From positions 87,894-151,893 of the forward strand of contig CABKLX010000007.1 of assembly GCA_902373415.1 (NCBI GenBank): DNA of 64,000 nucleotides. Direction: 5' to 3'. The stretch comes from an uncultured Eubacteriales bacterium. GTDB lineage: Bacteria; Bacillota; Clostridia; Oscillospirales; UBA644. Positions 16,404-61,828 of this stretch are shown here, piece by piece. How positions within the stretch are numbered: the stretch's first letter is position 1; each line of letters starts with the position of its first letter. Made by a program: the position numbers and the translations under genes. The notes under the pieces are model-generated. The model was not told the DNA's origin, did not search any database, and saw only the letters and a program-made list of their open reading frames with translations.

Positions 16404-16479
16404 GGGAGTTTAGCTCAGCTGGGAGAGCATCTGTCTTACAAACAGAGGGTCACAGGTTCGAGCCCTGTAACTCCCACCA
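16404..16479 (+). tRNA. tRNA-Val (anticodon TAC)
   Basis: GGGAGTT…AACTCCC acceptor stem; anticodon arm TCTGT-CTTACAA-ACAGA; T-loop GGTTCGAGCCC; ends ACCA (CCA encoded). Confidence 0.9.
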
Positions 16480-16522
16480 CTTTCTTAAACACCGCGCCGA
16501 ACGGTTCGGTCGCATTATATAC

Positions 16523-16599
16523 GGCTTCGTAGTTCAGTTGGTTAGAACGCCGCCCTGTCACGGCGGAGGTCGTGGGTTCGAGTCCCATCGGAGTCGCCA
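16523..16599 (+). tRNA. tRNA-Asp (anticodon GTC)
   Basis: anticodon arm CCGCC-CTGTCAC-GGCGG; T-arm GTGGGTTCGAGTCCCAT; acceptor stem has two G-U pairs; CCA encoded. Confidence 0.85.
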
Positions 16600-16606
16600 T
16601 TTTTTT

Positions 16607-16682
16607 GCGGTATTAGCTCATCTGGTAGAGCGCAACCTTGCCAAGGTTGAGGTAGCGGGTTCGAGCCCCGTATACCGCTCCA
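16607..16682 (+). tRNA. tRNA-Gly (anticodon GCC)
   Basis: GCGGTAT…ATACCGC acceptor stem; anticodon arm CAACC-TTGCCAA-GGTTG; T-loop GGTTCGAGCCC; CCA encoded. Confidence 0.9.
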
Positions 16683-21752: not shown

Positions 21753-22452
21753 GGGCGCCCGGTGAGCGCACGTTCTATAGGGTGAAAGTCCCGAAGTTGC
21801 CCGGTAGCGGGAAGACTTAGCCAAAGGCAAGGGTGTCCATCGCGAGGTGGAATCTGAAGAAAGCCGGATTTTGGGAGTTAAAAGGTCTCCCAATGGGCAA
21901 AACTCTGGCCTGACGAACAGAAATCGCATATAAGGCCGCCGGCGAGGGTAAGTTTGCCTAGCAAAACAAAGCCCAATAGCTACACGGAATCGCTCGCGGT
22001 AAATGCGGCAGGTAAAGAGAGAAAGAATGTGTGAGTACCCGGGGAGGTCTCACAGGCGCATCAAAGTAGACATATTCGAAAAAAAATGCGTAGTAACAAC
22101 GAACTGTGAGAAGTCAGCAGAGGTCATAGTACCGGAAAAAAACCGGGAAGGGCTGAACAATCGTTAGTCCTTTGGAAACAATGGAAGCTACCGAAAACGA
22201 GGGTAAAGAATCTGATTCAGCTTAGCATCCCGGATTGGGCTGCCTACAGATACGGCAACTCTCGCAAAGGCTATTGGCGATTGTCGGGGACAACAACTCT
22301 CGCGAGAGCAATCTCAAACAAAAGACTCGCACAGGCCGGATACTACAGCATCCTTGACCGGTACGAGTCTCTGCACTTATGCGATTGAACCGCCGTGTAC
22401 CGAACGGTACGCACGGTGGTGTGAGAGGTCGGGGCTATTCAGCCCCTCCTAC
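21753..22452 (+). mobile_element. ORF-less group II intron, class IIC-like, about 700 nt
   Basis: 5' GGGCGCCCGGTGAGCGCAC…GGGTGAAAGTCCCGAAG; domain I-type motifs (TAGCCAAAGGCAAGGGTGTCCATCGCGAGGTGGAATCTGAAGAAAGCCGG; CCCGGGGAGGTCTCA…GAAGTCAGCAGAGGTCATAGTACCGG); domain V GAACCGCCGTGTACCGAACGGTACGCACGGTGGT at 22387-22420; domain VI GTCGGGGCTATTCAGCCCCTCCTAC ending …TAC at 22452; no ORF longer than ~100 codons inside. Confidence 0.75.
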
Positions 22453-37635: not shown

Positions 37636-37711
37636 GGGGGCGTAGCTCATCTGGGAGAGCGCTACATTCGCATTGTAGAGGTAGTGAGTTCGAGTCTCAT
37701 CGTCTCCACCA
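37636..37711 (+). tRNA. tRNA-Ala (anticodon CGC)
   Basis: GGGGGCGTAGCTCA…; G3:U70 alanine identity pair; anticodon arm CTACA-TTCGCAT-TGTAG; CCA encoded. Confidence 0.85.
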
Positions 37712-44734: not shown

Positions 44735-45985
44735 TCAGTCTGTTTCCTTTTCGGGTTCGTCATTCAAAAAGTCCGCGTCGCGCTGTTTTGCGAGCGATAT
44801 GAGTATCCCGACCGTTTTTTCCATCGACGGAACGGGAATGAACTCGCGCACACCGTGGTAATTCGCGCCGCCTGTCGCGAGATTCGGACACGGAAGACCC
44901 ATTTCCGAAAGCCGCGCGCCGTCGGTGCCTCCGCGGACGGGAATCACGGTCGGCTCGACGCCGTTTTCCCTCATCGCCGCTTTTGCTCTGCGGATGATAT
45001 GCATGTGCGGAATTATGTATTCCTTCATATTATAATAACTGTCCTTTATCTGCGCCGTCAGCGTCCCTTCGCCGTAAACGCCGTTCATGTATTCGCAGAG
45101 ATCGGAAACGAACTTCTTGCGTTTTTCAAATTTTCCGCGGTCGTGGTCGCGGATTATCAACTCAACGGAACACAGGCTCTCATCGCCTTCGATCCCGCAG
45201 ACATGGTAAAAACCTTCATAATTTTCGGTGTGCGCCGGCGTCTCCGCGGCGGGCAGACGCGAAATGAACTCCGCGCCTATCAGCGTCGCGTTCTTCATGA
45301 CGTTTTTCGCGGTGCCGGGATGGATGTTGACGCCCTTCACCGTGATCTTCGCGCCCGCGGCGTTGAAATTCTCGTATTCAAGTTCGCCGAGTTCGCCACC
45401 GTCAACGGTGTAAGCCCAGCCGACTTTGAAGTTTTCGAGATCGAATTTGTCAGCGCCTCTGCCGATCTCCTCATCGGGAGTGAAGCCGACGCGGATCGCC
45501 CTGTGCGGAATTTCGGGATGTTCCGCCAGATATTCGCAGGCGGTCACGATCTCCGCGATCCCCGCCTTGTCGTCGGCGCCGAGAAGCGTCGAACCGTCCG
45601 TCACGATCAGTTCCTGTCCGATATATTTTCGGATAAACGGATAATCCGCGACGGTCAGCGTTTCGCCGTTGCCGAGATATATGTCTCCGCCTTCATATTT
45701 AATAATACGCGGTCTGATATTGCTTCCCGATACCGCGGGCGAGGTGTCCATGTGCGCGATCAGTCCGACCGCTGTCTCGTCTTTTCTGTCCTCCGTCGCG
45801 GGCAGAAAGCCGTAAACGTAGCCGTATTCGTCCATTCGGGTCTCTTCCAGCCCGATTTTTTTAAGCTCGTCGGCAAGAAAAGCCCCCAACGCCTTCTGTT
45901 TTTCCGTAGACGGCACGGAAGGAGAGTTTTCGTCCGACGTCGTGTCAAACGAAACGTATTTCAAAAATCTTTCGGTTATATTCAA
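44735..45985 (-). CDS. pepT: peptidase T (tripeptide aminopeptidase, M20 family)
   Basis: 416 aa; N-term MNITERFLKYVSFDTTSDE; M20 metal ligands (AHMDT, …DDKAG…, PDEEIG). Confidence 0.9.
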   Translation of the reverse strand: MNITERFLKYVSFDTTSDENSPSVPSTEKQKALGAFLADELKKIGLEETRMDEYGYVYGFLPATEDRKDETAVGLIAHMDTSPAVSGSNIRPRIIKYEGGDIYLGNGETLTVADYPFIRKYIGQELIVTDGSTLLGADDKAGIAEIVTACEYLAEHPEIPHRAIRVGFTPDEEIGRGADKFDLENFKVGWAYTVDGGELGELEYENFNAAGAKITVKGVNIHPGTAKNVMKNATLIGAEFISRLPAAETPAHTENYEGFYHVCGIEGDESLCSVELIIRDHDRGKFEKRKKFVSDLCEYMNGVYGEGTLTAQIKDSYYNMKEYIIPHMHIIRRAKAAMRENGVEPTVIPVRGGTDGARLSEMGLPCPNLATGGANYHGVREFIPVPSMEKTVGILISLAKQRDADFLNDEPEKETD

Positions 45986-46376
45986 ATCTCCAAACCCTCT
46001 TTATAAATTCGTTTCAGGCATATATTAACACAGACGGGCAAAAAAATCAATAGAGCCGGAGAAAAAAATCCGCATCGTCGCTTTTGTTTTCGATTTATTC
46101 CCGTTTTTTCTCTTTTTTCGGTATTTTACACTATCTTTACCGTTTTTTCGCAATTTATGCCGTTTCTTCGCTTTTCTGCACGGTTTTGATTGCTTTCGGG
46201 CCGAAAAAAAACGAAAGTTTCGTCCATGAAGGAAATATCGTTACACTTTGAGTGACAAAGATGTTTAATTATGCATTCGTTTCCGCATTATGCCGTGAAA
46301 AATTTATCTTTTCACTTTAACACTCCGTTCTGTTTGACGTTTATGCGAAAAAAAAAGGAAGTTTTGCAAAGTTATA

Positions 46377-46405
46377 TTGACAATATTCGTATGATACTAT
46401 ATAAT
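46377..46405 (+). promoter_or_regulatory. sigma-A promoter (TTGACA-17-TATAAT) of the ABC importer operon, followed by a ~200-nt structured leader
   Basis: tataTTGACAatattcgtatgatactaTATAATtga; leader contains the hairpin ggagcgccctctttgccattaggaggcgcggctc. Confidence 0.7.
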
Positions 46406-46606
46406 TGAAAAAAACGAAGAACCGTCATTTCCGGTGTCTGAGGCGAGGCGTCGGCGTTTTTATGCGCCGCGCTGAACGGGTTTCCGCATGTTATTTCCCG
46501 AGGGAATATATGTTTTTGTGACCTGTCGGAGCGCCCTCTTTGCCATTAGGAGGCGCGGCTCTGAGTTTATATTTTACATTTTACATTTTTTGGAGGTATC
46601 ATCTTT

Positions 46607-48733
46607 ATGAGCAAGAAATTGATTGCGCTCCTCCTTCTCGCGGCTTTGGTTGTCGGCTGCGCTCTTACAGGATGTAAGAACGATGGCGACGGACAGACCA
46701 CGACTACCGCTCCCGAGGCGGTTGTCCGCGAGATCCAGAAGGGCACCAGAGTCATTCTCGGCAGCACGACCGAGCTCAGCGGAGACTTCCGTTGGCCCGG
46801 ATTCGGCGGATCTTCCGCGGGTGCGTCCGACCAGGACATCACCAAGCTGACCGTCGGTTACGGTACGATGGAAATCGACCAGAGCGGCGCTTATCAGTGG
46901 AACAAGACTGCCGTTAAGTCTCATAACGAGACCGAAAATGACGACGGAACTTACACCATTGACATCGTTATTAACGAAGGTCTTAAATTCAGCGACGGTT
47001 CCGCGATCACCGCGAAGAACTATGTCGCGAGCATTCTTTCTTTCTCCTCGCCCGTTTCCGTTGCAGCCGGTCACTCCGGTATGAGCGGTCAGGCTTTCGT
47101 CGGCTATTCCGAGTTCAGAGCTTACACAGGCGCTGACGCTCCGGAAGAAGCCAAGAAAGAGTTCTCGGGCGTTCGTCTTCTCGGCGAATACGAGTTCTCT
47201 CTCACCGTTTCTTCGGACTACTATCCGTACTACTTCGCTTACACCTACGGTGCTGTTGATCCCGATTTCCTTGCTCTCGTTCTCGGCGAAGGCGTTGACG
47301 TTAAAGACGACGGCAACGGATGCTACCTGACCGACAACTTCTATGCAATGACCGAAGGCGAAGACGCTACTTACGTTAAAGCCGAAGAGATCAAAGCAAA
47401 CAGATACGACACGACCAAATATCCCTACTCCGGTCCGTACACCATCTCCAAGTGGGATGAGGGCAACTCCGAAGCGACCCTTCTCGCCAACCCCGAGTTC
47501 CAGGGCAACTTCGAGGGCGTTAAGCCGACCATCGAGACCATCGTTTACAGACTCCTCGTTCAGGAGACCCAGCTTGACCAGCTCAAGAAGGGCGAAGTTG
47601 ACGTTCTTTCCGCTATCACCGGCGGTAACGACACCAAGGCTGCTCTTGCCGTTGTTGACGGAACCAACTTCAGCGAAGTTCACTATCAGCGCGCCGGCTA
47701 CGGTAAGATCGAGTTCGAGTGCGACTTCGGTCCCACCATGTTCGCTTCCGTTCGTCAGGCTGTTACCTACGCTCTTAACAGAACCGAGTTCTGCCAGACC
47801 TTCACCGGCGGTTACGGCGTCGTTGTTGACGGACCTTACAGCCCGGATTTCGCGATGTGGAAGGCAGTTAAAGACGACATCACTCTTATCGACTACTCCT
47901 ACTCCGTTGCAAACGCTGAAAAAGCGCTTGTAGAAGGCGGCTGGATATACAACTCCAAGGGTGAGGACTTCGTTCCGGGACAGACCGGCGTTGACGCTGT
48001 TCGTTACAAGAAGCTGACTGCCGAAGAGGCTGAGGCCTGCGGCGGAGTCAACAAGACTTACGCTTCCGTTAACAACACCGACGGCGTTACCTACAAGACC
48101 GTTAAGATCGGCGACGATTACTATATGCCTCTCGCGATCAACTGGTTCGGAACCACGCCCAATGACGTGACCGACCTTCTCAACACCATGCTTGCAAACA
48201 GCAAGGATGTTGCGGGTCTCGGTATGGTTATCCGTTCGACTGTCGGCGACTTCACTCAGCTCCTCGGCGAAATTTACAGAGACGCTTCTTACGGTTATGC
48301 GGGAACCCCGACCTTCGGTATGTTCAACCTTGCAACCGGTTGGAACACCTCCGTTTATGACTATGCGTTCAACTGGTCTCTTGACGAGGCTTACTTCGGA
48401 TACTCCGCGAACAAACTCTACGACGAGTATGACGTAGCATTCCCGTACGACATCACCGCCGAAAAACTCAGCCTTGAAGATGCTATGGCAAAGTCCGGCG
48501 GCAAACTCGGTATGAACTACCTGTCGATGGGTATGGTTTACAACGCCAAGACCGAAGACGAGTACAACGCTTGGTGGGAAGCTTACATCGAAAGATGGAA
48601 TCAGCTTATGCCCGATATCCCGCTGTACTCCAACATGTACTACGACGTATTCAACGCAAAGATCACCGGCTTCGTAACCAGCCCGTTCTTCGGTATGGCA
48701 AGAGCCATCATCTACGCGGACGTTAAAGCGTAA
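46607..48733 (+). CDS. ABC transporter substrate-binding lipoprotein, family 5 (oligopeptide/oligosaccharide type), unusually long
   Basis: 708 aa; lipobox LVVGCALTGCKNDG; SBP_bac_5-like architecture; RBS GGAGGtatcatctttATG; the 801-aa antisense ORF is rejected. Confidence 0.8.
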   Translation: MSKKLIALLLLAALVVGCALTGCKNDGDGQTTTTAPEAVVREIQKGTRVILGSTTELSGDFRWPGFGGSSAGASDQDITKLTVGYGTMEIDQSGAYQWNKTAVKSHNETENDDGTYTIDIVINEGLKFSDGSAITAKNYVASILSFSSPVSVAAGHSGMSGQAFVGYSEFRAYTGADAPEEAKKEFSGVRLLGEYEFSLTVSSDYYPYYFAYTYGAVDPDFLALVLGEGVDVKDDGNGCYLTDNFYAMTEGEDATYVKAEEIKANRYDTTKYPYSGPYTISKWDEGNSEATLLANPEFQGNFEGVKPTIETIVYRLLVQETQLDQLKKGEVDVLSAITGGNDTKAALAVVDGTNFSEVHYQRAGYGKIEFECDFGPTMFASVRQAVTYALNRTEFCQTFTGGYGVVVDGPYSPDFAMWKAVKDDITLIDYSYSVANAEKALVEGGWIYNSKGEDFVPGQTGVDAVRYKKLTAEEAEACGGVNKTYASVNNTDGVTYKTVKIGDDYYMPLAINWFGTTPNDVTDLLNTMLANSKDVAGLGMVIRSTVGDFTQLLGEIYRDASYGYAGTPTFGMFNLATGWNTSVYDYAFNWSLDEAYFGYSANKLYDEYDVAFPYDITAEKLSLEDAMAKSGGKLGMNYLSMGMVYNAKTEDEYNAWWEAYIERWNQLMPDIPLYSNMYYDVFNAKITGFVTSPFFGMARAIIYADVKA

Positions 48734-48971: not shown

Positions 48972-50000
48972 ATGGGCAAATATATACTTAAAAGACTCGG
49001 TTATATGCTCGTTGTCATGCTGATACTCTCTCTGTTGATGTATCTTGTTTATGCAATGATCCCGTTCGACAGAGGACGCGCCGAGGCAGAAAAGCAGAAG
49101 GACGCGTACAAGCATATGGTAGACGGCGGAGCGAAATTTGAACAGTTTATCGAACAGAAGCGACACGAACTCGGAACCGACCGGAACGTTTTCATCCGTT
49201 ACCTCGGCTGGATAGGCATCGTGCCCATCAACGGGCAGTACAACGGGATACTTCAGGGTAATCTCGGTTACAGTTATCAGTATTCGCGAGACGCAAAAGA
49301 CGTTATAATCGAACCGATGAAAAACACCGTTTTCATCAATATTTTCGCAACCGTTCTCGCTCTCGGGATCACGATCCCTCTCGGTATCTTCTGCGCCGTT
49401 CACCGCGGAAGCAAGCGCGACACGGCAATTCAGATCGCAACGATAGTCGGTTACAGTATTCCGACGTTTATCATAGGCATAGTCTTCATCTGGATCTTTG
49501 CAACGATTCTCGGCTGGTTCCCCGTTTCCGGTATGGGAACCCCCGGCGCTAACTATACCGGCGCCCGCGCGTTTTTTGACAAACTTTATTATATGAGTTT
49601 GCCTCTGATCGCGATGACTTTCGCATCCTTGGGCGGTATGACCCGTTATGTCCGCGCTTCCATGACGGAGGCTCTTTCGCTCGACTGCATCAGAACCGCG
49701 AGAGCGAAAGGTCTGCGCGAGAAAACGGTTGTTTACAGCCATGCGTGGAGAAACGCGCTGATCCCCATCATAACTCTTGTTATAGGCTGGTTCCTCGGCA
49801 TATTCTCCGGCTCCATTATGATCGAGAATATTTTCGGACTCAACGGCGTCGGCAAGCTCTATATTCAGTCTCTGAACAACAAGGATTTTGAAGTCGTGCT
49901 TTTGCTTCAAATGTTCTATGTTTTCATCGGACTTATCGGAAACCTTATCATAGATATCGCTTACGGTATCGCCGACCCGCGCGTCCGCGTTAATAAATAA
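48972..50000 (+). CDS. ABC transporter permease (OppB/DppB type)
   Basis: start at MGKYILKRLGYMLVV with RBS GGAGttgggtATG; conserved EAA-like loop (…DCIRTARAKGLREKTVVYSHAWRNALIP…). Confidence 0.85.
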   Translation: MGKYILKRLGYMLVVMLILSLLMYLVYAMIPFDRGRAEAEKQKDAYKHMVDGGAKFEQFIEQKRHELGTDRNVFIRYLGWIGIVPINGQYNGILQGNLGYSYQYSRDAKDVIIEPMKNTVFINIFATVLALGITIPLGIFCAVHRGSKRDTAIQIATIVGYSIPTFIIGIVFIWIFATILGWFPVSGMGTPGANYTGARAFFDKLYYMSLPLIAMTFASLGGMTRYVRASMTEALSLDCIRTARAKGLREKTVVYSHAWRNALIPIITLVIGWFLGIFSGSIMIENIFGLNGVGKLYIQSLNNKDFEVVLLLQMFYVFIGLIGNLIIDIAYGIADPRVRVNK

Positions 50001-50009
50001 AGGAGGACA

Positions 50010-51944
50010 ATGAAAATGAACAAAGAGAAAAAGTCCTCCGAAAAGAGAGTTTTCACTCCTTTGAAGTGGCTCCGCCGTATGTTCTTCGGCGCATCGAAAG
50101 AACTGACCGCTGCGGACGAAAGATATGACAGCCCGGGCAAACTTGCGGTCAAGAGATTTTTCAGAAGAAAGTCCGCGCTTATAGCGGTCATCGTGCTTGC
50201 CGCGATGTTCCTGTTTGTTATAATAGGTCCCATTGTTGCGCCCGTCGATCTGACCGAAACGGGAAGCGAAATGCTTCACACAAACGTTTCGCCGACGATG
50301 AACATGATGAAACTTCCGTCTTCGATGAAAGACGGCACGATCGATATCTCTTCAAGAGGTTCTTTCACCGTCGGACTTGACACGGACGGAAACGTTTACA
50401 CGTGGGGCTATTATTTCAACCATTCCGACGATTCGCAGCGCGACGTCCTCACCGTTCCCGAAGAGGTTCGGAACGCACATATCATTCACGTTGCCGCAGG
50501 ATCCGACCATATTGTTGCGATAGGCGACGACGGCTATGTTTATGCCTGGGGCGAATATGACAACGGACAGTACGGCGACCAAGGCTCGATGAGCGCAATC
50601 TGCCGCCTTATGACCGACGAACTCCCCTCGGACGGAAAGATCGACCCGACGAAAGTCGAGCAGCTCATCTGCGGCCAGCAGGTGACCGCCATTCTTATGG
50701 AAGACGGCAAAATATATGCCTGGGGCAATGACGGACTTTCCGCAACCAACCTTTCTTCAGTTATAAAAGCGGGCAAGGAAAACGGAAAAATCGTCAAGCT
50801 TGCATTCACGAACGACGGCATATACGGAATTGACGAAAACGGAAAATTCGTCAGAGGCAAGAGCACAAAATTCGATTATATCAATGCAAATCTTTCCGTT
50901 GACCAAGCGATAGGAAACCGCAAATGCGTTGATATCGCCGCAACAGGAACCTCCGTTGCGCTTCTTCTTGACGACGGAGAGATCGTGCTTGTCGGCATGA
51001 AAGACCCCGTTCCCGCAGTTGCGGACGGCGACAAGATAATTTCGATCTCCGCCGGCACCCGCCACTATACGGCTGTTACCGAGCAGGGCAGAGTTTACTG
51101 CTGGGGTCAGAGCTACAGAAACCAATGCGAGATCCCCTCTTCTCTCGAAGACGCGGGCTCCGTTGACACCGTTTTTGCTTCCGGGTTCCAGAACTATGCG
51201 TTCAAGGACGGCAAAAATGTCGGCAACTGGGGACTTAAAGGATACCTTATGGGAACCGACGAAATGGGTCGCGACGTGTTCAACCGTCTTATGAACGGCG
51301 GTATGATGACCATGTCCATCGGCGCTGTCGCCGTTATCGTTTCCACGATAATCGGTATCATTATCGGATGTCTTTCGGGCTACTTCGGCGGCGCGGTCGA
51401 TCTGATCCTCATGCGCGTGACGGAGATATTCGGAGCAATTCCGTTCCTTCCGTTCGCACTTGTTCTTTCCGCCGTTCTGAAATATTCGGACGTCAAGGAG
51501 AACACCCGTATCTTTATAATCATGATAATTCTCGGACTCCTTTCGTGGACGGGACTTGCAAAACTCGTTCGCGGTCAGATACTTGCGGAGCGCGAAAAAG
51601 AATTCGTTACTGCCGCACGCTCGATGGGTGTCCGTGAAAGCCGCATAGCGTTCAAACACATTCTTCCGAACATCGTTTCCGTTATTCTTGTAACGGTAAC
51701 GCTCGATTTCGCGGGTTGTATGCTGACGGAGTCTTCGCTTTCATACCTCGGCTTCGGCGTTCAGCTTCCGCGCCCGACCTGGGGCAATATGCTCGACGGT
51801 TCAAAGAACTCGCAGGTTATTCAGAACTTCTGGTGGAGATGGCTGTTCCCCGCGCTGTTCCTGTCCATCGTCGTTATATGCATAAACATCATCGGCGACA
51901 CGCTTCGCGACGTGCTTGACCCGAAATCGGAGGTGGAGAAATAA
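50010..51944 (+). CDS. ABC transporter permease (OppC/DppC type) carrying an ~330-aa RCC1-like beta-propeller in its first extracytoplasmic loop
   Basis: 644 aa; TM1 ALIAVIVLAAMFLFVIIGPIVAP; RCC1-type repeats (GSDHIVAIGDDGYVYAWGEYDNGQYG; GQQVTAILMEDGKIYAWGNDG; GTRHYTAVTEQGRVYCWGQSYRNQCE); then the canonical OppC GTDEMGRDVFNRLM motif and five further TMs. Confidence 0.8.
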   Translation: MKMNKEKKSSEKRVFTPLKWLRRMFFGASKELTAADERYDSPGKLAVKRFFRRKSALIAVIVLAAMFLFVIIGPIVAPVDLTETGSEMLHTNVSPTMNMMKLPSSMKDGTIDISSRGSFTVGLDTDGNVYTWGYYFNHSDDSQRDVLTVPEEVRNAHIIHVAAGSDHIVAIGDDGYVYAWGEYDNGQYGDQGSMSAICRLMTDELPSDGKIDPTKVEQLICGQQVTAILMEDGKIYAWGNDGLSATNLSSVIKAGKENGKIVKLAFTNDGIYGIDENGKFVRGKSTKFDYINANLSVDQAIGNRKCVDIAATGTSVALLLDDGEIVLVGMKDPVPAVADGDKIISISAGTRHYTAVTEQGRVYCWGQSYRNQCEIPSSLEDAGSVDTVFASGFQNYAFKDGKNVGNWGLKGYLMGTDEMGRDVFNRLMNGGMMTMSIGAVAVIVSTIIGIIIGCLSGYFGGAVDLILMRVTEIFGAIPFLPFALVLSAVLKYSDVKENTRIFIIMIILGLLSWTGLAKLVRGQILAEREKEFVTAARSMGVRESRIAFKHILPNIVSVILVTVTLDFAGCMLTESSLSYLGFGVQLPRPTWGNMLDGSKNSQVIQNFWWRWLFPALFLSIVVICINIIGDTLRDVLDPKSEVEK

Positions 51945-53002
51945 TGGCCGACAACATCGAAAAAGCAACTCATCCGAACGAAGAGCCCTTGCTCGAAGTT
52001 AAGAATCTCCACACGTTTTTCAAAACAAGAAACGGTATCGTTAAGGCCGTCAACGACGTTTCGTATTCGATATATCGCGGAAAAACGCTCGGCATCGTGG
52101 GCGAATCCGGCTCGGGAAAGAGCGTTTCCGCAATGAGCATACTGCGTTTGCTTGACGCAAACGGCTATATCGCAGACGGAATGGTCAAGTTTGAGGGCAA
52201 AGACCTTTCAAAATTCTCGACGCAGGAAATGTATCATATTCGCGGCAACCGTATATCGGTCATATTCCAAGAGCCGATGACGAGCCTGAACCCGGTATTC
52301 ACGGTTAAGAGACAGCTTTCCGAGCCGTTTATCATTCACCAGAATATGTCGAAGAAAGATGCGGAGAAAAAGAGCATCGAAATGCTCCGTGCGGTTCAGA
52401 TCCCGAATCCCGAAGCGGTTGCGAGACAGTATCCGCACCAGCTTTCCGGCGGTATGCGCCAGCGCGTTATGATTGCCATGGCGCTTGCCTGCAAACCCGA
52501 TATTCTTATAGCGGACGAACCGACGACCGCGCTTGACGTTACCATTCAGGCTCAGATCCTTCGTTTGATGAACGACCTGCAAAGAGAAAACGGAACGGCG
52601 ATCATGTTCATCACGCACGACCTCGGCGTTATCAACGAAATGGCGGACGACGTCGTCGTTATGTACTGCGGTCAGGTCGTTGAACAGGCTCCTGCGCGTC
52701 TTATATTCACGGATTGCAAGAAGAGCCATCCTTACACCGAGGGCTTGATGTATTCGATCCCGCGTCTGAACGACGACAGAAAGAAACTTGACCCGATTCC
52801 CGGCGTTGTGCCTCACCCGCTCGATCTGCCGAAAGGCTGCAAATTCGCGCCCCGCTGCAAATATTGCACGCGCAGATGTATAGAGGAAGAGCCGCCGCTG
52901 GCAAAGGTTGCGGACAACCAACTTGTTCGCTGCTTCTATCCGGATAAAGAAGAAAGGAGGAGCGCCGCTCATGCAGAAATTACTGTCGATTACGAATCTT
53001 AA
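51944..53002 (+). CDS. ABC transporter ATP-binding protein (OppD/DppD type)
   Basis: 352 aa; Walker A GESGSGKS; signature LSGGMRQR; Walker [13 protein letters not shown]; C-terminal oligopeptide-transporter extension. Confidence 0.9.
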
Positions 53003-54557
53003 AAAGTATTTCCCGATGCCGAAGGCGTCCGTCTTCTCCAAACAGGTATACAACAGAGCAAACGAGGATATAACCCTCAACATTTATAAGGGCGAAACGT
53101 TCGGTCTCGTCGGTGAGTCCGGCTGCGGAAAATCCACGCTTGGTCGCGTTTTGCTCCAACTTTACGAGCAGACCGCGGGAAGCACGATGTATTACGGCAG
53201 AACGCTTGACACGGTCGCTCCCGAATACGTTACGGATACTCTGAAAAACGCCGAAAAATACGTTGCGGAGTACCACAAAGCGCAGGCTCACGCGGATGCG
53301 CTCGAAAAAGCGTGCGAAGAGAAGGGCGAAGCCGCGACCTTCTATGACATTCAGGAAAAAAATCTTGCGGCGTGCAACGCGAAAACGGCGCTTGACAACG
53401 TTGCGAAGATCCTCGGCGGCTTTACCGTCCGCGACACGAAAAAGGGCGCGGATATGCTTCTTTCGAAGTACCGTCTGACCTTTAAGGCGGAAAAGATTCA
53501 GGAGGAGATAGACGATATCGACCTCGACATCTCCGAACTTGAAGCCGATCTTTCGGAAAATACGGCAAAAGCGGAATCCGCAAAGAAAAAGATTGAAAAA
53601 CTCAAAAAAGCCAAGGCTCCGCTTGAATCGGACAAAGAAAAGTTGCTCGGCGAAGCGGCAAAAATCCAGCTTTCGATAGACGAACAGAAAGCAAAGTATG
53701 CGGGCGACGAAGAGTTTGCCGAATACGAAGCAATGCTTGACGACGGCGTCGATCTGAGAAGATTGAAGTATACCGAAATGCGTCTTCTGAGAAAAGACCT
53801 GCAAGTCATTTTCCAGGACCCGTATTCGTCGCTGAACCCGCGTATGACCGTAGGTCAGATAATCGAAGAGGGACTTGTAACGCATAAGTTCTTCAAGCGA
53901 GGCTCTAAAAAAATGCAGGAGTACGTTTTCCAAATAATGAATTCGTGCGGCTTGCAGAATTATATGTACAACAGGTATCCGCACCAGTTCTCGGGCGGAC
54001 AGAGACAAAGGATCTGTATCGCGCGCGCTCTTGCGGTCAAGCCGAAGTTCGTCGTCTGCGACGAATGCGTTTCGGCGCTTGACGTTTCCATTCAGTCGCA
54101 GATCATCAATCTTCTGCAGGACTTGAAGGAAAAAGAGGGACTGACGTATCTTTTCATTTCGCACAACCTCTCCGTTGTCCGTTACATCTCCGACCGTATC
54201 GGCGTTATGTATCTGGGCAATATGGTCGAGGTCGCTCCGACGGACGAGTTGTTCGCCGATCCGCGTCATCCGTATACGATCGCGCTGCTGTCCTCGATCC
54301 CGACGACAGACCCCGACAGCCTGACAAAGGAAAGAATAATCCTCGAAGGCAACATCCCCAGCCCGATCAATCCGCCTTCGGGATGCAAATTCCACACGCG
54401 CTGTTTCATGGCTTGCGATAAATGCAAGGTCGTTCCTCCGCAGCTGACGGAGATCTCCCCGGGGCATTTCGTCGCCTGTCATTTCGCGGATACGCGCAAA
54501 GTCGATGAGAACGGCAATTACCTGTTTGACGTCAAGAAGACGACTAACGAAAGATGA
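52971..54557 (+). CDS. ABC transporter ATP-binding protein (OppF/DppF type) with ~200-aa coiled-coil insertion
   Basis: start at [14 protein letters not shown] with RBS AGGAGGAGcgccgctcATG, overlapping oppD; Walker A GESGCGKST; then Lys/Glu/Ala-rich heptad-like insertion (…KAQAHADALEKACEEKG…EKIQEEIDDIDLDISELEADLSENTAKAESAKKKIEKLKKAKAPLESDKEKLLGEAAKIQLSIDEQKAKYAGDEEF…); normal sequence resumes at LRKDLQVIFQDPYSSLNP, LSGGQRQR, FVVCDECVSALD. Confidence 0.8.
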   Translation: MQKLLSITNLKKYFPMPKASVFSKQVYNRANEDITLNIYKGETFGLVGESGCGKSTLGRVLLQLYEQTAGSTMYYGRTLDTVAPEYVTDTLKNAEKYVAEYHKAQAHADALEKACEEKGEAATFYDIQEKNLAACNAKTALDNVAKILGGFTVRDTKKGADMLLSKYRLTFKAEKIQEEIDDIDLDISELEADLSENTAKAESAKKKIEKLKKAKAPLESDKEKLLGEAAKIQLSIDEQKAKYAGDEEFAEYEAMLDDGVDLRRLKYTEMRLLRKDLQVIFQDPYSSLNPRMTVGQIIEEGLVTHKFFKRGSKKMQEYVFQIMNSCGLQNYMYNRYPHQFSGGQRQRICIARALAVKPKFVVCDECVSALDVSIQSQIINLLQDLKEKEGLTYLFISHNLSVVRYISDRIGVMYLGNMVEVAPTDELFADPRHPYTIALLSSIPTTDPDSLTKERIILEGNIPSPINPPSGCKFHTRCFMACDKCKVVPPQLTEISPGHFVACHFADTRKVDENGNYLFDVKKTTNER

Positions 54558-55917: not shown

Positions 55918-57372
55918 ATGCATACAGCGGAAAAGATACCGAAAAGATCGCGGACAACGCGCGATATGACGCAGGGAAATCCTTACTCGCATATGGTCGC
56001 GTTTGCGATGCCCGTTCTTTTGAGTCAGATATTTCAGCAACTTTACAACACCGCCGATACGTTCATTGTCGGCAAATTTCTCGGCACCGACGCTCTCGCC
56101 GCAGTCAGTTCGTCGGGAACACTGATATTTCTTCTTACGAGCTTTTTTGTCGGAACGACGATGGGCTCGGGCGTTGTCATTTCAAGGTATTTCGGCGCGG
56201 GCGACGGCGAAAACATCTCGCGTGCGGTGCACACTAACATCGCGTTCGGACTTGTCAGCAGCGTTATTCTGACCGTTTTCGGCGTTGCGTTCACCCCGAC
56301 TTTTTTGACGTGGATGAAAACCGATCCGACCGTTCTGCCGCAGGCGATCGAGTATTTCCGTTATTATTTCCTCGGCGCGACCGCGATGATAATGTATAAT
56401 GTCTGCCGAAGCATCATGAACGCCGTCGGAGACAGCCGAAGACCTTTGTTTTATCTCATATTTTCCTCCGTGCTGAACATTCTGCTCGACCTGCTTTTTG
56501 TCGCGGTATTCCGTTGGGGCGTATGGTCAGCCGCTGTCGCGACCGTTATCTCTCAGGCGGCAAGCGTCGTGCTCTGCTGTTTCCAACTGATGAAAAAGGG
56601 GCAAATCTACAGCGTTTCCCTCAGAAAAATACGTTTTCATAAAGATATGCTCGTCGAGATCATACGCTACGGGCTTCCGTCGGGCATTCAGAATTCCGTT
56701 ATCGGGTTCGCGAACGTTATCGTTCAGACGCAGATCAATTCGTTCGGAAAGTTCGCCACCGCGGGTTACGGTGTTCACGCAAAAATAGAGGGCTTCGCCT
56801 TTTTGCCGATAACGAGCTTTAATATGGCAACCACGACTTTTATCAGCCAGAACCTCGGCGCAAGAGAGTTCGACCGCGCCAAAAAGGGCGCGCGCTTCGG
56901 GATTTTGGCGGCGACTGTCGCCGCAGAGGTCATAGGCGTTCTGAACTATGTTTTCGCCCCTGCTCTCGTCGGATTTTTCGACTCGACGCCCGAAGTGCTT
57001 GAGCTCGGCGTCCGTCAGGCACGCACGGTCGCTCTTTTCTACTGCCTGCTTGCGTTCTCGCACGCGATAGCCGCAATATGCCGCGGGGCGGGCAAGGCGT
57101 TTGTGCCGATGACCATTATGCTTTCCGTCTGGTGCGTGTTCCGTATCGCCTATATCGAAACTGTCGTTCATATTTTTCACGACATAGGCTACATCTATTG
57201 GGCTTACCCGATAACGTGGGGTATCAGCTCGATAATATATATGATTTATTACAAGCATTCCGACTGGGTGCACGGCTTTGAACACGAACCGAAGTCCCTG
57301 CTCTCCCATGTCACCGCGCTGTTCAACCGCAACAAGACAGCTCCGGAAATTCCGGAAGAGGAGGACAACTGA
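55918..57372 (+). CDS. MATE-family efflux transporter
   Basis: 484 aa; 12 TM; MATE N-terminal consensus (PYSHMVAFAMPVLLSQIFQQLYNTADTFIVGKFLGTDALAAVS). Confidence 0.85.
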   Translation: MHTAEKIPKRSRTTRDMTQGNPYSHMVAFAMPVLLSQIFQQLYNTADTFIVGKFLGTDALAAVSSSGTLIFLLTSFFVGTTMGSGVVISRYFGAGDGENISRAVHTNIAFGLVSSVILTVFGVAFTPTFLTWMKTDPTVLPQAIEYFRYYFLGATAMIMYNVCRSIMNAVGDSRRPLFYLIFSSVLNILLDLLFVAVFRWGVWSAAVATVISQAASVVLCCFQLMKKGQIYSVSLRKIRFHKDMLVEIIRYGLPSGIQNSVIGFANVIVQTQINSFGKFATAGYGVHAKIEGFAFLPITSFNMATTTFISQNLGAREFDRAKKGARFGILAATVAAEVIGVLNYVFAPALVGFFDSTPEVLELGVRQARTVALFYCLLAFSHAIAAICRGAGKAFVPMTIMLSVWCVFRIAYIETVVHIFHDIGYIYWAYPITWGISSIIYMIYYKHSDWVHGFEHEPKSLLSHVTALFNRNKTAPEIPEEEDN

Positions 57373-59762
57373 TGGAAAACACAAAAGGAAAAACCGAAAA
57401 GAGCCTCAGCGTTCCGCAGTATTTTTCATGGGTCAACCATAATAACGACGGAACGACCGAGGAAATCACTCTGACGAACCTTGATTTTTTCGCGTGGCTT
57501 AAACGCGAGTTCGGTATGAAGATCGAGATTTACGCGCTTGATGCGGGAAATTTCGATTCCCCCGCGCACATGGCTTTCGATCCCGAAAACGAACAGTTCC
57601 GTCGGAATTTCCCGAACGGTTTTGAAAAGATCGCCGCTCGCGCACGCGAGCTCGGCATAAAGCTCGGCTATTGGTGCGGTCCGGACGGTTTCGGCGAAAC
57701 GGAAGAGGACGCCGAAAAGCGTTCCCGCCAGATAATCGACCTTGTTGAAAAATACGAGGCTGGGCTTTTGAAATTCGACCTTGTCGGCGGCGATATACGC
57801 CCCGAAAAGATACCGATGTTTGAAAAAACGATTATTGAATGCCGAAAGATCTGCCCGGAACTCATCGTGCTTATTCACCGTCTCAATATCGGCGACGCAC
57901 AGCGTTTTGCGACCACTTTCCTGTGGGAAGGGCAGGAGTCTTATACCGATGTGCTTGTCTGCAACGACAGACCTGCGCCGCACCACCGCGAAGGCGGTCT
58001 TGTTCGCGGACTTGTTCCCGGAATGCAGCGTCTGACGGAAGATCACGGCGTATGCCTTTCCTCCTGCCTTGACTTTTTCGAGGACGAACTCGTTTTGCAG
58101 GCGTTCTCCCGCTCGCTGATACTTTCCCCCGAGATATACGGAACTCCCGCGTTTCTGCGCGACGATGAGTTTCCGCGTCTTGCGCGTATATACAATATTT
58201 CCGCGAAGTATGCGCCGCTACTCGTTGACGGGTTCAGGCTCGAAGACGACGATACCTGCCGCTTCGGGGAAAACGCCGTCAGCAGAGGAAACGGCAGAAC
58301 GCGCGTCATGACTTTCAAAAACCTTTCGTGGCAACCGTTTGAGGCGGTCATACGGCTTGACGGAACGGTCGGTCTGGAAGGAGACGGAAAAGTCCGCGTC
58401 GTTCGGTATTTCCCGACACAGCGTCTACTCGGCGATTTTGACTTCGGTTCGGTCGTCCGCGTCACGGTCGATCCGTTCCGCTCCTGCATGATCGTTGCGT
58501 CGCTTGACGGAATAGACGACGTTTTGCTTACGGACTGCGATTACGAAGTCGTGCGCGACGTCGAAAACCGCCCCGTTGAGGTCAATATCGTCCGCGCCGA
58601 CGGAAAAGTCCGCCTGATCTCTCCCTGTTTCGGGAAAGCCGCGCTCGGCGGCGAAAACGCGCCCGAAATTCTCGGTGACGGAGCGGAGATACATCTCGAC
58701 AAATCTGTTCACGCGCCGAAATTCCTCGGAACTTTTGAAAACTGCCCGATCCCGTCTTTCGCGGAAACTCTTTATGAAGCGGCATGCTTCGAGAGCGACG
58801 GCGTGAGTCTTGAAAAAGCCTCTCTTCGCCGCGCGGGAAAGACGAAGTATCCCGAAGTCGAAGCCGCGCGCAACGCGTTTTTCGGTCAGGAGGGCTATTA
58901 TATAAGAGGGTGCGACCCCGAATTTATGTTTGACGGCAAAGACGAAACATTTTACGACGCCCGCTCGCGCAATTACGGACGTCGCGTGAAAAACGGCTGT
59001 CTGCGCATCGATCTCGGAAAGACCGTTGACGCCGATCGCGTCTGCATGGAGGTCTTTTCCGCCGATGAAGGTTCTCTTGCCGCGCTTCCGAACATATATC
59101 CGCAGATGGGCGAGACGTCGCAGGATCTGTTTTCATGGAACGAAATGCCGCTTCTGTCGCGCAGGGAACTCCGCCGCGCCGAAGAGCCGTTTTCGATGGA
59201 GAATGTCAACAGAAAAGGGTATGACATGGGATATCGCGTCCTTGTCGAGTATTCCGTTTCCGCACCGTTCAGGTATCTGCGTCTGCCCGAGCCGCCCGAT
59301 CATATACATTCCCTTCGCTTTTTCAAAAACGGAGAAGAGATCGCGGTCGGAACTCCGAAAGCGAACAATATGCTCGCGGCGTTCAAAAACCGCTCCGTTG
59401 TCAGCACCCGTAAACTGACCGTTGAGATCCCCTCGGACGCGAGGGAAGGCAGTTATATCACCGTCGCCTGTTCGGGCGAACACGGCAGGGAATGCCTTTA
59501 CGCCGCCGCTGTCTGCGGTTCGCGCTTTGTCGGTTGCTTTGACCGCGCGCCCTCGTTCCCCGTGCATTGGTGGGGACATTGGACGATCGACTGTTCGCAT
59601 AATTCATCGCATTATATCCGTATCGGCGACGGTATGCGCGGAAAAAGCGTTGACGTTTATTTGCTTCTGCTTGACGGCGGAGTCGAGGATTACACAGCCG
59701 ACGCGTATCTTTGCGAAGAAAACGGCTCGATGCGCGGCGCGGAACTAAAATTGGAGAGGTAA
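57372..59762 (+). CDS. putative glycoside hydrolase with GH-D clan (GH27/GH36 melibiase-like) TIM-barrel N-domain
   Basis: 796 aa; start overlaps the MATE stop (ATGA); motifs parallel to alpha-galactosidase blocks (LDAGNF~DDGWF; NFPNGF~KFPxGL; GIKLGYWCGPDGFG~GMKFGLWxEPE); large C-terminal beta-rich region; no signal peptide. Confidence 0.45.
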   Translation: MENTKGKTEKSLSVPQYFSWVNHNNDGTTEEITLTNLDFFAWLKREFGMKIEIYALDAGNFDSPAHMAFDPENEQFRRNFPNGFEKIAARARELGIKLGYWCGPDGFGETEEDAEKRSRQIIDLVEKYEAGLLKFDLVGGDIRPEKIPMFEKTIIECRKICPELIVLIHRLNIGDAQRFATTFLWEGQESYTDVLVCNDRPAPHHREGGLVRGLVPGMQRLTEDHGVCLSSCLDFFEDELVLQAFSRSLILSPEIYGTPAFLRDDEFPRLARIYNISAKYAPLLVDGFRLEDDDTCRFGENAVSRGNGRTRVMTFKNLSWQPFEAVIRLDGTVGLEGDGKVRVVRYFPTQRLLGDFDFGSVVRVTVDPFRSCMIVASLDGIDDVLLTDCDYEVVRDVENRPVEVNIVRADGKVRLISPCFGKAALGGENAPEILGDGAEIHLDKSVHAPKFLGTFENCPIPSFAETLYEAACFESDGVSLEKASLRRAGKTKYPEVEAARNAFFGQEGYYIRGCDPEFMFDGKDETFYDARSRNYGRRVKNGCLRIDLGKTVDADRVCMEVFSADEGSLAALPNIYPQMGETSQDLFSWNEMPLLSRRELRRAEEPFSMENVNRKGYDMGYRVLVEYSVSAPFRYLRLPEPPDHIHSLRFFKNGEEIAVGTPKANNMLAAFKNRSVVSTRKLTVEIPSDAREGSYITVACSGEHGRECLYAAAVCGSRFVGCFDRAPSFPVHWWGHWTIDCSHNSSHYIRIGDGMRGKSVDVYLLLLDGGVEDYTADAYLCEENGSMRGAELKLER

Positions 59763-61754: not shown

Positions 61755-61828
61755 TGCGATATAGTGTAAAGGTAGCACAGCAGCCTCTGACTCTGCTTGT
61801 CGGGGTTCGAATCCCTGTATCGCAGCCA
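61755..61828 (+). tRNA. tRNA-Gln (anticodon CTG)
   Basis: U1:A72 start (TGCGATA…TATCGCA) typical of bacterial tRNA-Gln; anticodon loop CT-CTG-AC; T-loop GGTTCGAATCC; discriminator G; CCA encoded; one C-U mismatch at the base of the anticodon stem. Confidence 0.75.

Follow-up and report, generated by a model that had tools for sequence, protein, structure and literature searches.

The gene analyzed here lies in a stretch of 64,000 nucleotides (nt) from an uncultured Eubacteriales bacterium (assembly GCA_902373415.1, contig CABKLX010000007.1, positions 87,894 to 151,893; the whole stretch is called the window below), where it is the third gene in a tightly packed block of five on the + strand. 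In order, these genes encode a lipoprotein of the family-5 substrate-binding proteins (SBPs), the permease OppB, the permease analyzed here, and the ATPases OppD and OppF; the gene downstream of oppF is convergent. The third gene encodes the OppC subunit of a five-component ATP-binding cassette (ABC) importer of the Opp/Dpp family (type I), and is predicted to carry a complete beta-propeller of RCC1-type repeats between its first two transmembrane (TM) helices. We refer to this protein as OppC-RCC1, and it comprises the following parts:

50010..51944, + strand: the OppC-RCC1 open reading frame (ORF), 644 amino acids (aa), confirmed exactly.
50010..50246, + strand: N-terminal cytoplasmic tail (residues 1-56) and TM1 (residues ~57-79, OppC_N), from Pfam, hydropathy, charge count and alignment to E. 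coli OppC.
50247..50333, + strand: extracytoplasmic linker of 29 aa (residues 80-108), from conservation and a low-confidence AlphaFold2 model.
50334..51236, + strand: seven-bladed RCC1-like beta-propeller (residues 109-409), from Pfam, phmmer, AlphaFold2, Foldseek, blade register and the ratio of nonsynonymous to synonymous substitutions (dN/dS).
51237..51944, + strand: pre-TM2 GTDxxGRD segment and five-helix BPD_transp_1 core (residues 410-644), with the stop codon, from Pfam, NCBIfam and alignment to E. coli OppC.

Both membrane parts of the protein are readily recognized as OppC: OppC_N (PF12911) matches residues 41-86 with 39.7 bits (cutoff 23.9), and BPD_transp_1 (PF00528) matches residues 449-639 with 113 bits (cutoff 26.4, E 1.5e-32). 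In a phmmer search against the PDB, residues 46-88 align to residues 29-71 of E. coli OppC, and residues 410-640 to its residues 80-301 (8z21_B, E 9e-51). Because the flanking segments align to E. coli OppC positions 71 and 80, the insert of ~320 aa corresponds to the extracytoplasmic loop between TM1 and TM2. The motif given in the initial annotation as GTDxMGRDVF is found after the insert and reads GTDEMGRDVF, and the sequence TAARSMG occupies the position of the coupling helix. The best NCBIfam match is Opp4C, with 305 bits against a cutoff of 350, and every equivalog cutoff is missed. Judged by its domains, motifs and operon partners, all of which are present, OppC-RCC1 is a member of the OppC family and not an equivalog of any named transporter.

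The RCC1-family matches in Pfam lie between residues ~107 and 372 and include RCC1_2 in four stretches (94.4 bits, cutoff 22, E 2.5e-27) and RCC1 (44.4 bits, cutoff 21.7), so that these families, like BPD_transp_1, all score above their cutoffs. The whole-domain model for the RCC1-like domain (RLD), WD40_RLD, gives an E value of 2.5e-33 but, at 116 bits, stays below its cutoff of 150. Among sequences of solved structures, residues 100-413 match the RLDs of HERC2, UVR8 and RCC1 (E 5.5e-26 for the HERC2 RLD) as well as BLIP-II (E 4e-9). An AlphaFold2 model built from a 37-sequence alignment folds residues 100-410 into seven three-stranded blades (residues 110-133, 158-181, 216-239, 261-292, 306-328, 343-366 and 387-408) with predicted local distance difference test (pLDDT) values of ~80-93, that is, as a propeller and not as a disordered region; the membrane domain is poorly resolved in this model (pLDDT ~55-62) because the alignment is shallow. 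A Foldseek search yielded a probability of 1.00 for UVR8, HERC2, RPGR and BLIP-II, with the best target coverage obtained for the compact, secreted BLIP-II (TM-score on target 0.70-0.74).

All seven blades fit a single register, (I/V)xxIxxGxxHxxALxxDGxVYxWG. With ~45 aa each, the blades are short, and the degenerate state of blades 4, 5 and 7 accounts for the count of five or six in the initial annotation. At the level of repeats and predicted fold, the insert is an RCC1-like seven-bladed propeller that falls below the Pfam cutoff for the whole domain. Apart from the number of blades, the layout proposed from the raw sequence, namely, an OppC permease with an RCC1 propeller in its first extracytoplasmic loop followed by the GTD motif and the remaining TM helices, is consistently recovered by Pfam, phmmer, AlphaFold2 and Foldseek.

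In the hydropathy profile, a single helix precedes the insert and the customary five follow it, and the N-terminal 56 residues include 17 K/R against 6 D/E, consistent with a cytoplasmic N-terminus. Given this positive N-terminus and the insertion point between TM1 and TM2 of the OppC and DppC proteins solved by cryo-electron microscopy, the propeller is predicted to reside outside the cell. On the N-terminal side of the propeller, the linker (residues 80-108) is conserved, with N92, P95 and P103 present in at least 93% of the sequences, and residues 73-98 have pLDDT values below 50. On the C-terminal side, the final strand of blade 7 (residues 402-408) leads directly, with no linker, into G411, G415-T416-D417 and G420-R421-D422, a segment conserved in 58 non-redundant sequences, in which G415, D417, G420, R421 and D422 are invariant or nearly so. 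Since blade 7 runs straight into the GTDxxGRD segment, the propeller appears to be rigidly mounted on the outer face of OppC. We consider this architecture and topology to be all but certain.

To assess how widespread the fusion is, we surveyed GTDB contigs with one genome per species and took the best 80 loci. All 80 span residues 1-644, at 51-94% identity, and come from the guts of humans, mice, rabbits and ruminants; the genomes belong to Lachnospiraceae (Butyrivibrio and Acetatifactor, the latter with the isolate A. muris DSM 23669) and Oscillospiraceae (Faecousia and 'Ruminococcus'). The Pfam set of OppC-RCC1 also recurs in at least 120 of the clusters formed at 90% identity; these are 69-94% identical to it and are named in the database simply 'ABC transporter permease subunit'. 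When 1.84 billion representatives at 50% identity were scanned exhaustively with HMMER, ~35 further fusion clusters of 550-1142 aa came to light, with identities down to 31%, the named members among these distant clusters coming from Defluviitaleaceae and Bacilli. The suggestion that the architecture could be lineage-specific is therefore too narrow, as it extends beyond the Oscillospiraceae, and its description as unusual holds in comparison with textbook Opp systems but not as a statement of rarity, given that at least 80 species genomes carry the fusion. In the full-text library searched, we found no paper that joins OppC or an ABC permease with RCC1. Thus, RCC1-OppC proteins constitute an undescribed but widespread architectural class of Opp transporters, whose sequences are already public under generic names.

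The ectodomain retains a length of 294-350 aa throughout the family. Against the nearest orthologues, dN/dS is 0.06-0.11 for the propeller and 0.006-0.02 for the membrane domain, values that place the propeller under purifying selection. The ectodomain is also the fastest-evolving part of the SBP/permease half of the operon, with a mean pairwise distance of 0.42 compared to 0.35 for the SBP, 0.25 for OppB and 0.17 for the OppC transmembrane domain (TMD). Because the propeller is widespread, stable in length and characterized by low dN/dS, it can be considered a functional, constrained domain. The insertion is old, common in gut Firmicutes, inherited with the rest of the operon and maintained by purifying selection.

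The other genes and features of the operon are the following:

46377..46405, + strand: candidate sigma-70 promoter of the operon, TTGACA-17-TATAAT, from a consensus scan (12/12 matches).
46607..48733, + strand: oversized family-5 substrate-binding lipoprotein, 708 aa (SBP_bac_5, E 2.6e-31; signal peptide and lipobox LTGC).
48972..50000, + strand: OppB-type permease, 342 aa (Pfam BPD_transp_1 and BPD_transp_1_N; NCBIfam Opp4B, 240 bits, end to end).
51944..53002, + strand: OppD ATPase, 352 aa, with a C-terminal oligo_HPY domain (Pfam ABC_tran and oligo_HPY).
52971..54557, + strand: OppF ATPase, 528 aa (Pfam ABC_tran, split in two stretches).
~53214-53744, + strand: helical insert of OppF, ~175 aa, residues ~82-258 (alignment to Rv1281c/OppF; AlphaFold2).

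In ~70 of the 80 loci, SBP, OppB, OppD and OppF are encoded in this order around OppC-RCC1, the remainder being truncated contigs, and the SBP gene is retained 5' of oppB in 71. The block is self-contained, that is, conserved as a unit while the flanks differ: flanking genes are common only to the window and its two closest genomes, and elsewhere the block stands alone, with gaps of 200-900 bp. In the window, the flanks encode a PepT-like M20 peptidase (upstream and divergent), TrkA, an ATP-grasp protein, a MATE transporter and a 796-aa protein. The neighborhood accordingly offers no substrate clue beyond this group of three genomes, and among the neighbor genes of the 80 loci no extra gene (hydrolase, protease or regulator) is conserved beside the five-gene block. 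The hints at a peptide substrate are that the nearest solved relative of the SBP is an OppA, that the PepT-like peptidase gene is located upstream in the window and its two closest relatives, and that a Peptidase_M3 gene is found upstream in a sister clade of operons described below.

The SBP fits its initial description as a 708-aa family-5 binding protein. Among solved structures, it is closest to OppA 9p48 (562 aa, E 3e-31), and its greater length results from several insertions at separate places. An SBP of 703-842 aa is present in every RCC1-OppC operon, and an oversized SBP accompanies every insert-bearing OppC, with medians of 724 and 770 aa, in line with the proposed link between the propeller and a long binding protein; however, two of seven OppCs with no insert or a small one also adjoin long SBPs, of 879 and 918 aa, and the Spearman correlation is not significant, so that SBP size does not require the insert and is at most weakly associated with it. 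The OppB of the window retains the long TM1-TM2 region (BPD_transp_1_N).

The ATPases combine a conserved feature with an unusual one. The oligo_HPY regions of both OppD (~52880-52990) and OppF (~54380-54490) contain the pattern C-x5-C-x6-C-x17-C. The spacing of the [4Fe-4S] ligands in E. coli DppD is the same as in the window OppD, and that in DppF is C-x5-C-x6-C-x16-C (PMC12136057); by this pattern, the Fe-S clusters are probably retained in OppD and OppF. The unusual feature is the insert of OppF, located between the strand that follows Walker A and the Q-loop strand, which AlphaFold2 models as four long helices (residues 94-121, 124-152, 156-194 and 198-241) with pLDDT of 80-94. The insert is poorly conserved (mean distance 0.60), and a Foldseek search against the PDB revealed no solved analogue, the ATPase core alone being matched. 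It is present in every complete RCC1-clade operon (73/73) and in all 120 best OppF homologues, and RCC1-clade OppFs are 513-642 aa long compared to ~340 aa in the sister clade. Judged by these comparisons, the helical insert is specific to the RCC1 clade, and a general coupling between the OppF insert and OppC ectodomain inserts is ruled out by the normal length of the sister-clade OppF.

The candidate promoter is located ~200 nt 5' of the SBP start, and the leader of that length in between is structured: a terminator-like hairpin with a T-run is present at 46431-46462, 3' of the promoter, and a second, GC-rich hairpin at ~46535-46575, just 5' of the SBP ribosome-binding site. The promoter/leader region (46377-46600) is retained in loci L001 and L002, and may be an attenuator or other leader element. 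An Rfam scan of positions 45900-46700 at E values up to 1 detected no family match and thus no riboswitch or known RNA leader 5' of the SBP gene. CodY boxes, a potential link to peptide nutrition, were not detected near the operon, and their count across the window is at the chance level.

Other features of the window were also noted. The 796-aa ORF (57372-59762, + strand), directly 3' of the MATE transporter gene, matches no Pfam family at E up to 0.001, and both of the closest genomes conserve it at 73-74% identity. In another part of the window, at 21836-22153 on the + strand, a group II intron is indicated by Rfam hits to its domains D1-D4 (RF02001, 132 bits; RF01998, 51 bits), and tRNA genes are found at 16404-16679, 37636-37708 and 61755-61825.

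The TM1-TM2 loop of OppC harbors other inserts as well. The search of HMMER representatives also retrieved OppC-like proteins of 440-780 aa in which both membrane parts match and the inserts do not (P0216, P0223, P0232, P0234, P0236, P0241, P0258, P0263 and P0257 are examples). These sister-clade inserts, of 200-480 aa, occupy the same loop, between OppC_N and the GTD motif, and are unrelated to RCC1; most have no Pfam match and show repeated alpha/beta modules, and the insert of P0257 is a PQQ/BamB-like propeller (PQQ_2). We analyzed 80 sister-clade loci (L081-L160), mostly on human-gut metagenome contigs, and found the gene order Peptidase_M3, an ORF of ~180 aa, SBP5 (745-814 aa), OppB, OppC with insert, OppD and a normal OppF. 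Because unrelated ectodomains occupy this loop in related OppCs, it is a recurrent insertion hot-spot.

To examine how the parts of the transporter evolve relative to one another, we performed a mirror-tree analysis of 63 complete operons. Two modules emerged: an outer module consisting of the SBP, OppB, the OppC ectodomain and the OppC TMD (r 0.84-0.94), and an ATPase module consisting of OppD, the OppF core and the OppF insert (r 0.84-0.92), with correlations of 0.27-0.46 between the two. The propeller correlates with the SBP, OppB and the TMD at 0.86-0.89 and with the ATPase module at 0.27-0.38, which assigns it to the outer module, with no special coupling to the OppF insert. Along the operon, nucleotide identity to L001 and L002 is patchy (0.79-1.00 per 300 nt), and the synonymous divergence (dS) of the propeller from L001, 0.84, is ~6-fold above that of the N-terminal and linker codons (0.12-0.14). 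The pattern suggests recombination or module exchange between the SBP/OppB/OppC and OppD/OppF halves.

What the propeller does can be approached through two transporters in which the region between permease helices is involved in contacts with the SBP. In E. coli DppABCDF, the periplasmic TM1-TM2 region of the pseudo-symmetric partner permease, DppB, which corresponds to the loop that holds the propeller in OppC, forms a scoop that enters the SBP cleft and is ordered only with the SBP bound; DppA caps both permeases, and DppB and DppC differ mainly in TM1 and the TM1-TM2 region (PMC12136057). In the maltose transporter, a loop of the permease MalF contains the folded P2 domain, which interacts with MalE during the entire cycle, with a Kd of 7-22 uM, and communicates with MalK; this "unique extended periplasmic domain", as it has been called, is described as having no counterpart in most type I ABC importers (PMC6906923).

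By analogy with MalF-P2, the propeller could serve as a platform for docking and retention of the SBP, a function that we put forward as a tentative proposal with a fair share of the probability but short of an even chance. The propeller would be positioned beside the SBP-docking surface on the outer face of OppC, as judged by steric proximity, and would contact one lobe of the membrane-anchored, oversized SBP, keeping it at the translocator throughout the transport cycle and helping to shut the outward-facing cavity. The scoop region of OppB would perform the hand-over of the substrate, and transport would be ordinary SBP-dependent, ATP-driven uptake, probably of peptides. We favor this function because of the rigid mounting next to the SBP site and the MalF-P2 precedent. 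It is also supported by the divergence of the propeller, which tracks that of the SBP, OppB and the TMD and not that of the ATPase module, and the linker (residues 80-108), conserved but of low pLDDT, recalls the DppB scoop, a region that lacks order in the absence of its partner. The oversized SBPs found in all operons with an insert-bearing OppC are a further point in its favor.

Several observations weigh against a docking role. The propeller correlates to an equal extent with the SBP, with OppB and with its own TMD, so that the mirror-tree signal is not specific to the SBP. The conserved positions of the propeller are nearly all structural Gly and Trp, and per-position conservation among the 58 non-redundant sequences identified no conserved surface patch. 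Both putative partners are acidic, with 26 K/R against 45 D/E in the ectodomain and 51 K/R against 95 D/E in the mature SBP. The oversized SBPs of 879 and 918 aa that adjoin OppCs with no insert or a small one also count against it, and the status of the ectodomain as the fastest-evolving part would equally fit variable external ligands.

This last point leads to the main rival explanation, according to which the propeller is an independent ligand-capture module, a second receptor site that would concentrate longer peptides, glycopeptides, muropeptides or host or dietary polymers, to be passed, themselves or as fragments, to the SBP. Beta-propellers are typical binding scaffolds, and BLIP-II, the closest compact match, is an RCC1-like propeller secreted by bacteria whose affinity for a protein partner is picomolar; Gram-positive gut bacteria also have RCC1 repeats in surface proteins anchored through LPxTG (PMC4449606). 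That the ectodomain evolves more rapidly than the rest of the SBP/permease half points in the same direction, and the different inserts in the same loop of related OppCs are compatible with interchangeable binding modules. However, no pocket or motif is conserved beyond the structural residues, a dedicated SBP is always encoded in the operon, and the neighborhood lacks a conserved hydrolase or protease that would supply a polymer-derived substrate. Furthermore, the rigid, membrane-proximal mounting places the propeller under the cell wall, near the SBP, rather than facing outward. On balance, ligand capture is a real but distinctly less probable possibility.

A scaffold role, in which the propeller would hold a third partner, such as a surface protease or peptidase, a second SBP or a regulator, or would position the transporter relative to peptidoglycan, appears unlikely. 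RCC1-like domains are classic protein-protein platforms, as in RCC1-Ran, HERC2, UVR8-COP1 and BLIP-II-TEM-1, and Gram-positive Opp translocators often serve several SBPs. Nevertheless, no additional gene accompanies the five-gene block across the loci, and the Pfam scan of OppC-RCC1 detected none of the recognizable cell-wall-binding motifs (SLH, LysM, SH3b, LPxTG), which speaks against anchoring to the wall.

It is rather improbable that the propeller is a sensory or regulatory device that detects a cue and signals through the permease, with the four-helix insert of OppF as the cytoplasmic output or input, so that the transporter would signal or be gated instead of serving nutrition alone. 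The propeller and the OppF insert are both clade-specific and co-occur in all 73 complete operons; OppF pairs with OppC in solved Dpp/Opp complexes (DppC-DppF, PMC12136057), and MalF-P2 relays the periplasmic state to MalK (PMC6906923). The two inserts nonetheless belong to different co-evolving modules (r = 0.38 between them), and the OppF insert is weakly conserved, with OppF itself variable in length. No regulator gene is conserved nearby, and the catalytic and transport motifs are all intact. An extended version, to which we likewise assign a low probability, would combine the propeller and the OppF insert into a two-sided transmembrane sensor-importer, with the OppC loop as a modular 'receptor slot'. 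In such a device, the propeller could read an external partner or ligand, and the helical bundle could either gate ATP hydrolysis or act by recruiting or releasing a factor in the cytoplasm; at least three unrelated ectodomains, the RCC1 propeller, the PQQ/BamB-like propeller and the Pfam-less alpha/beta repeats, would fill the slot in Firmicutes.

Finally, even though the TM1-TM2 loop tolerates very different insertions, the possibility that the propeller is a neutral passenger or an annotation artefact is effectively refuted, and a chimeric assembly excluded, by the seven-blade domain being intact and in frame in at least 80 species genomes that were assembled independently, one of them an isolate, together with its dN/dS and its narrow range of lengths.

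Beyond MalF-P2, OppC-RCC1 is a further case, conserved and much larger, in which an entire beta-propeller is mounted on an Opp permease, and it is abundant in Clostridia of the human, mouse and ruminant gut. If the propeller holds the SBP, this would account for the retention of a lipid-anchored receptor at the translocator of Gram-positive importers; if it binds ligands, it would represent a new route to a wider substrate range for the peptide transporters of dominant gut commensals. The finding alone does not resolve a long-standing question, and the propeller may prove to be a modest elaboration of SBP docking. The system is experimentally approachable given that Acetatifactor muris DSM 23669 carries OppC-RCC1, and, with sizeable soluble domains on both sides of the membrane, the transporter is a natural 'fiducial-tagged' Opp complex for structural biology.

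In comparison with known systems, OppC-RCC1 is closest to the OppC and DppC subunits of E. coli OppBCDF (8z21), E. coli DppABCDF (8z1v-8z1z) and M. tuberculosis OppABCD (8j5q), with which it shares TM1, the GTDxxGRD motif, the BPD_transp_1 core and the coupling helix. As in other Opp/Dpp systems, it is encoded in an operon with OppB, two oligo_HPY ATPases that retain the Fe-S cysteine spacing and a family-5 SBP. Unlike in E. coli OppC, the stretch of ~9 residues between the aligned blocks in the TM1-TM2 region is replaced by the 29-aa linker and the 300-aa propeller, and, in contrast to the textbook systems, OppF contains the 175-aa helical insert and the SBP is ~150-170 aa longer. The sister-clade OppCs share the insertion site and the operon order with an oversized SBP5, and differ in lacking the RCC1 insert and the long OppF and in the upstream Peptidase_M3 and ~180-aa ORF.

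To our knowledge, among type I importers, MalF-P2 is the sole case described so far in which a loop of the permease contains a folded domain. It is not homologous to the propeller and is the closest functional model, being likewise a folded extracytoplasmic domain located near the SBP docking site. The differences are that the insertion is between TM1 and TM2 of OppC compared to TM3 and TM4 of MalF, that the domain is a propeller of ~300 aa rather than an Ig-like domain of ~185 aa, and that the transporters belong to different families; SBP binding is known for MalF-P2 and is proposed for the OppC-RCC1 propeller. In GlnPQ and OpuA, SBP-fold domains are fused to the permease, raising the local concentration of the accessory function. 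A MalE-MalF fusion has been described in Bdellovibrio (PMC6906923). In these cases, as in OppC-RCC1, an extracytoplasmic module is covalently joined to the translocator; unlike in GlnPQ and OpuA, the OppC insert has no similarity to SBPs, its Pfam and fold matches being of the RCC1 type alone, and a separate SBP gene is retained, which excludes an SBP-fold fusion of the GlnPQ type.

As a domain, the insert resembles the RLDs of RCC1, HERC2 and UVR8 as well as BLIP-II in being a seven-bladed propeller of RCC1 repeats, and is nearest to BLIP-II in size and compactness. It differs from these proteins, with which it shares 15-24% identity, in that it is inserted in a polytopic membrane protein instead of being soluble and cytoplasmic, nuclear or secreted. 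Nothing suggests that the OppC propeller performs any of the activities of RLDs, namely, guanine nucleotide exchange, UV sensing or beta-lactamase inhibition; guanine nucleotide exchange and other known RLD activities are not expected outside the cell.

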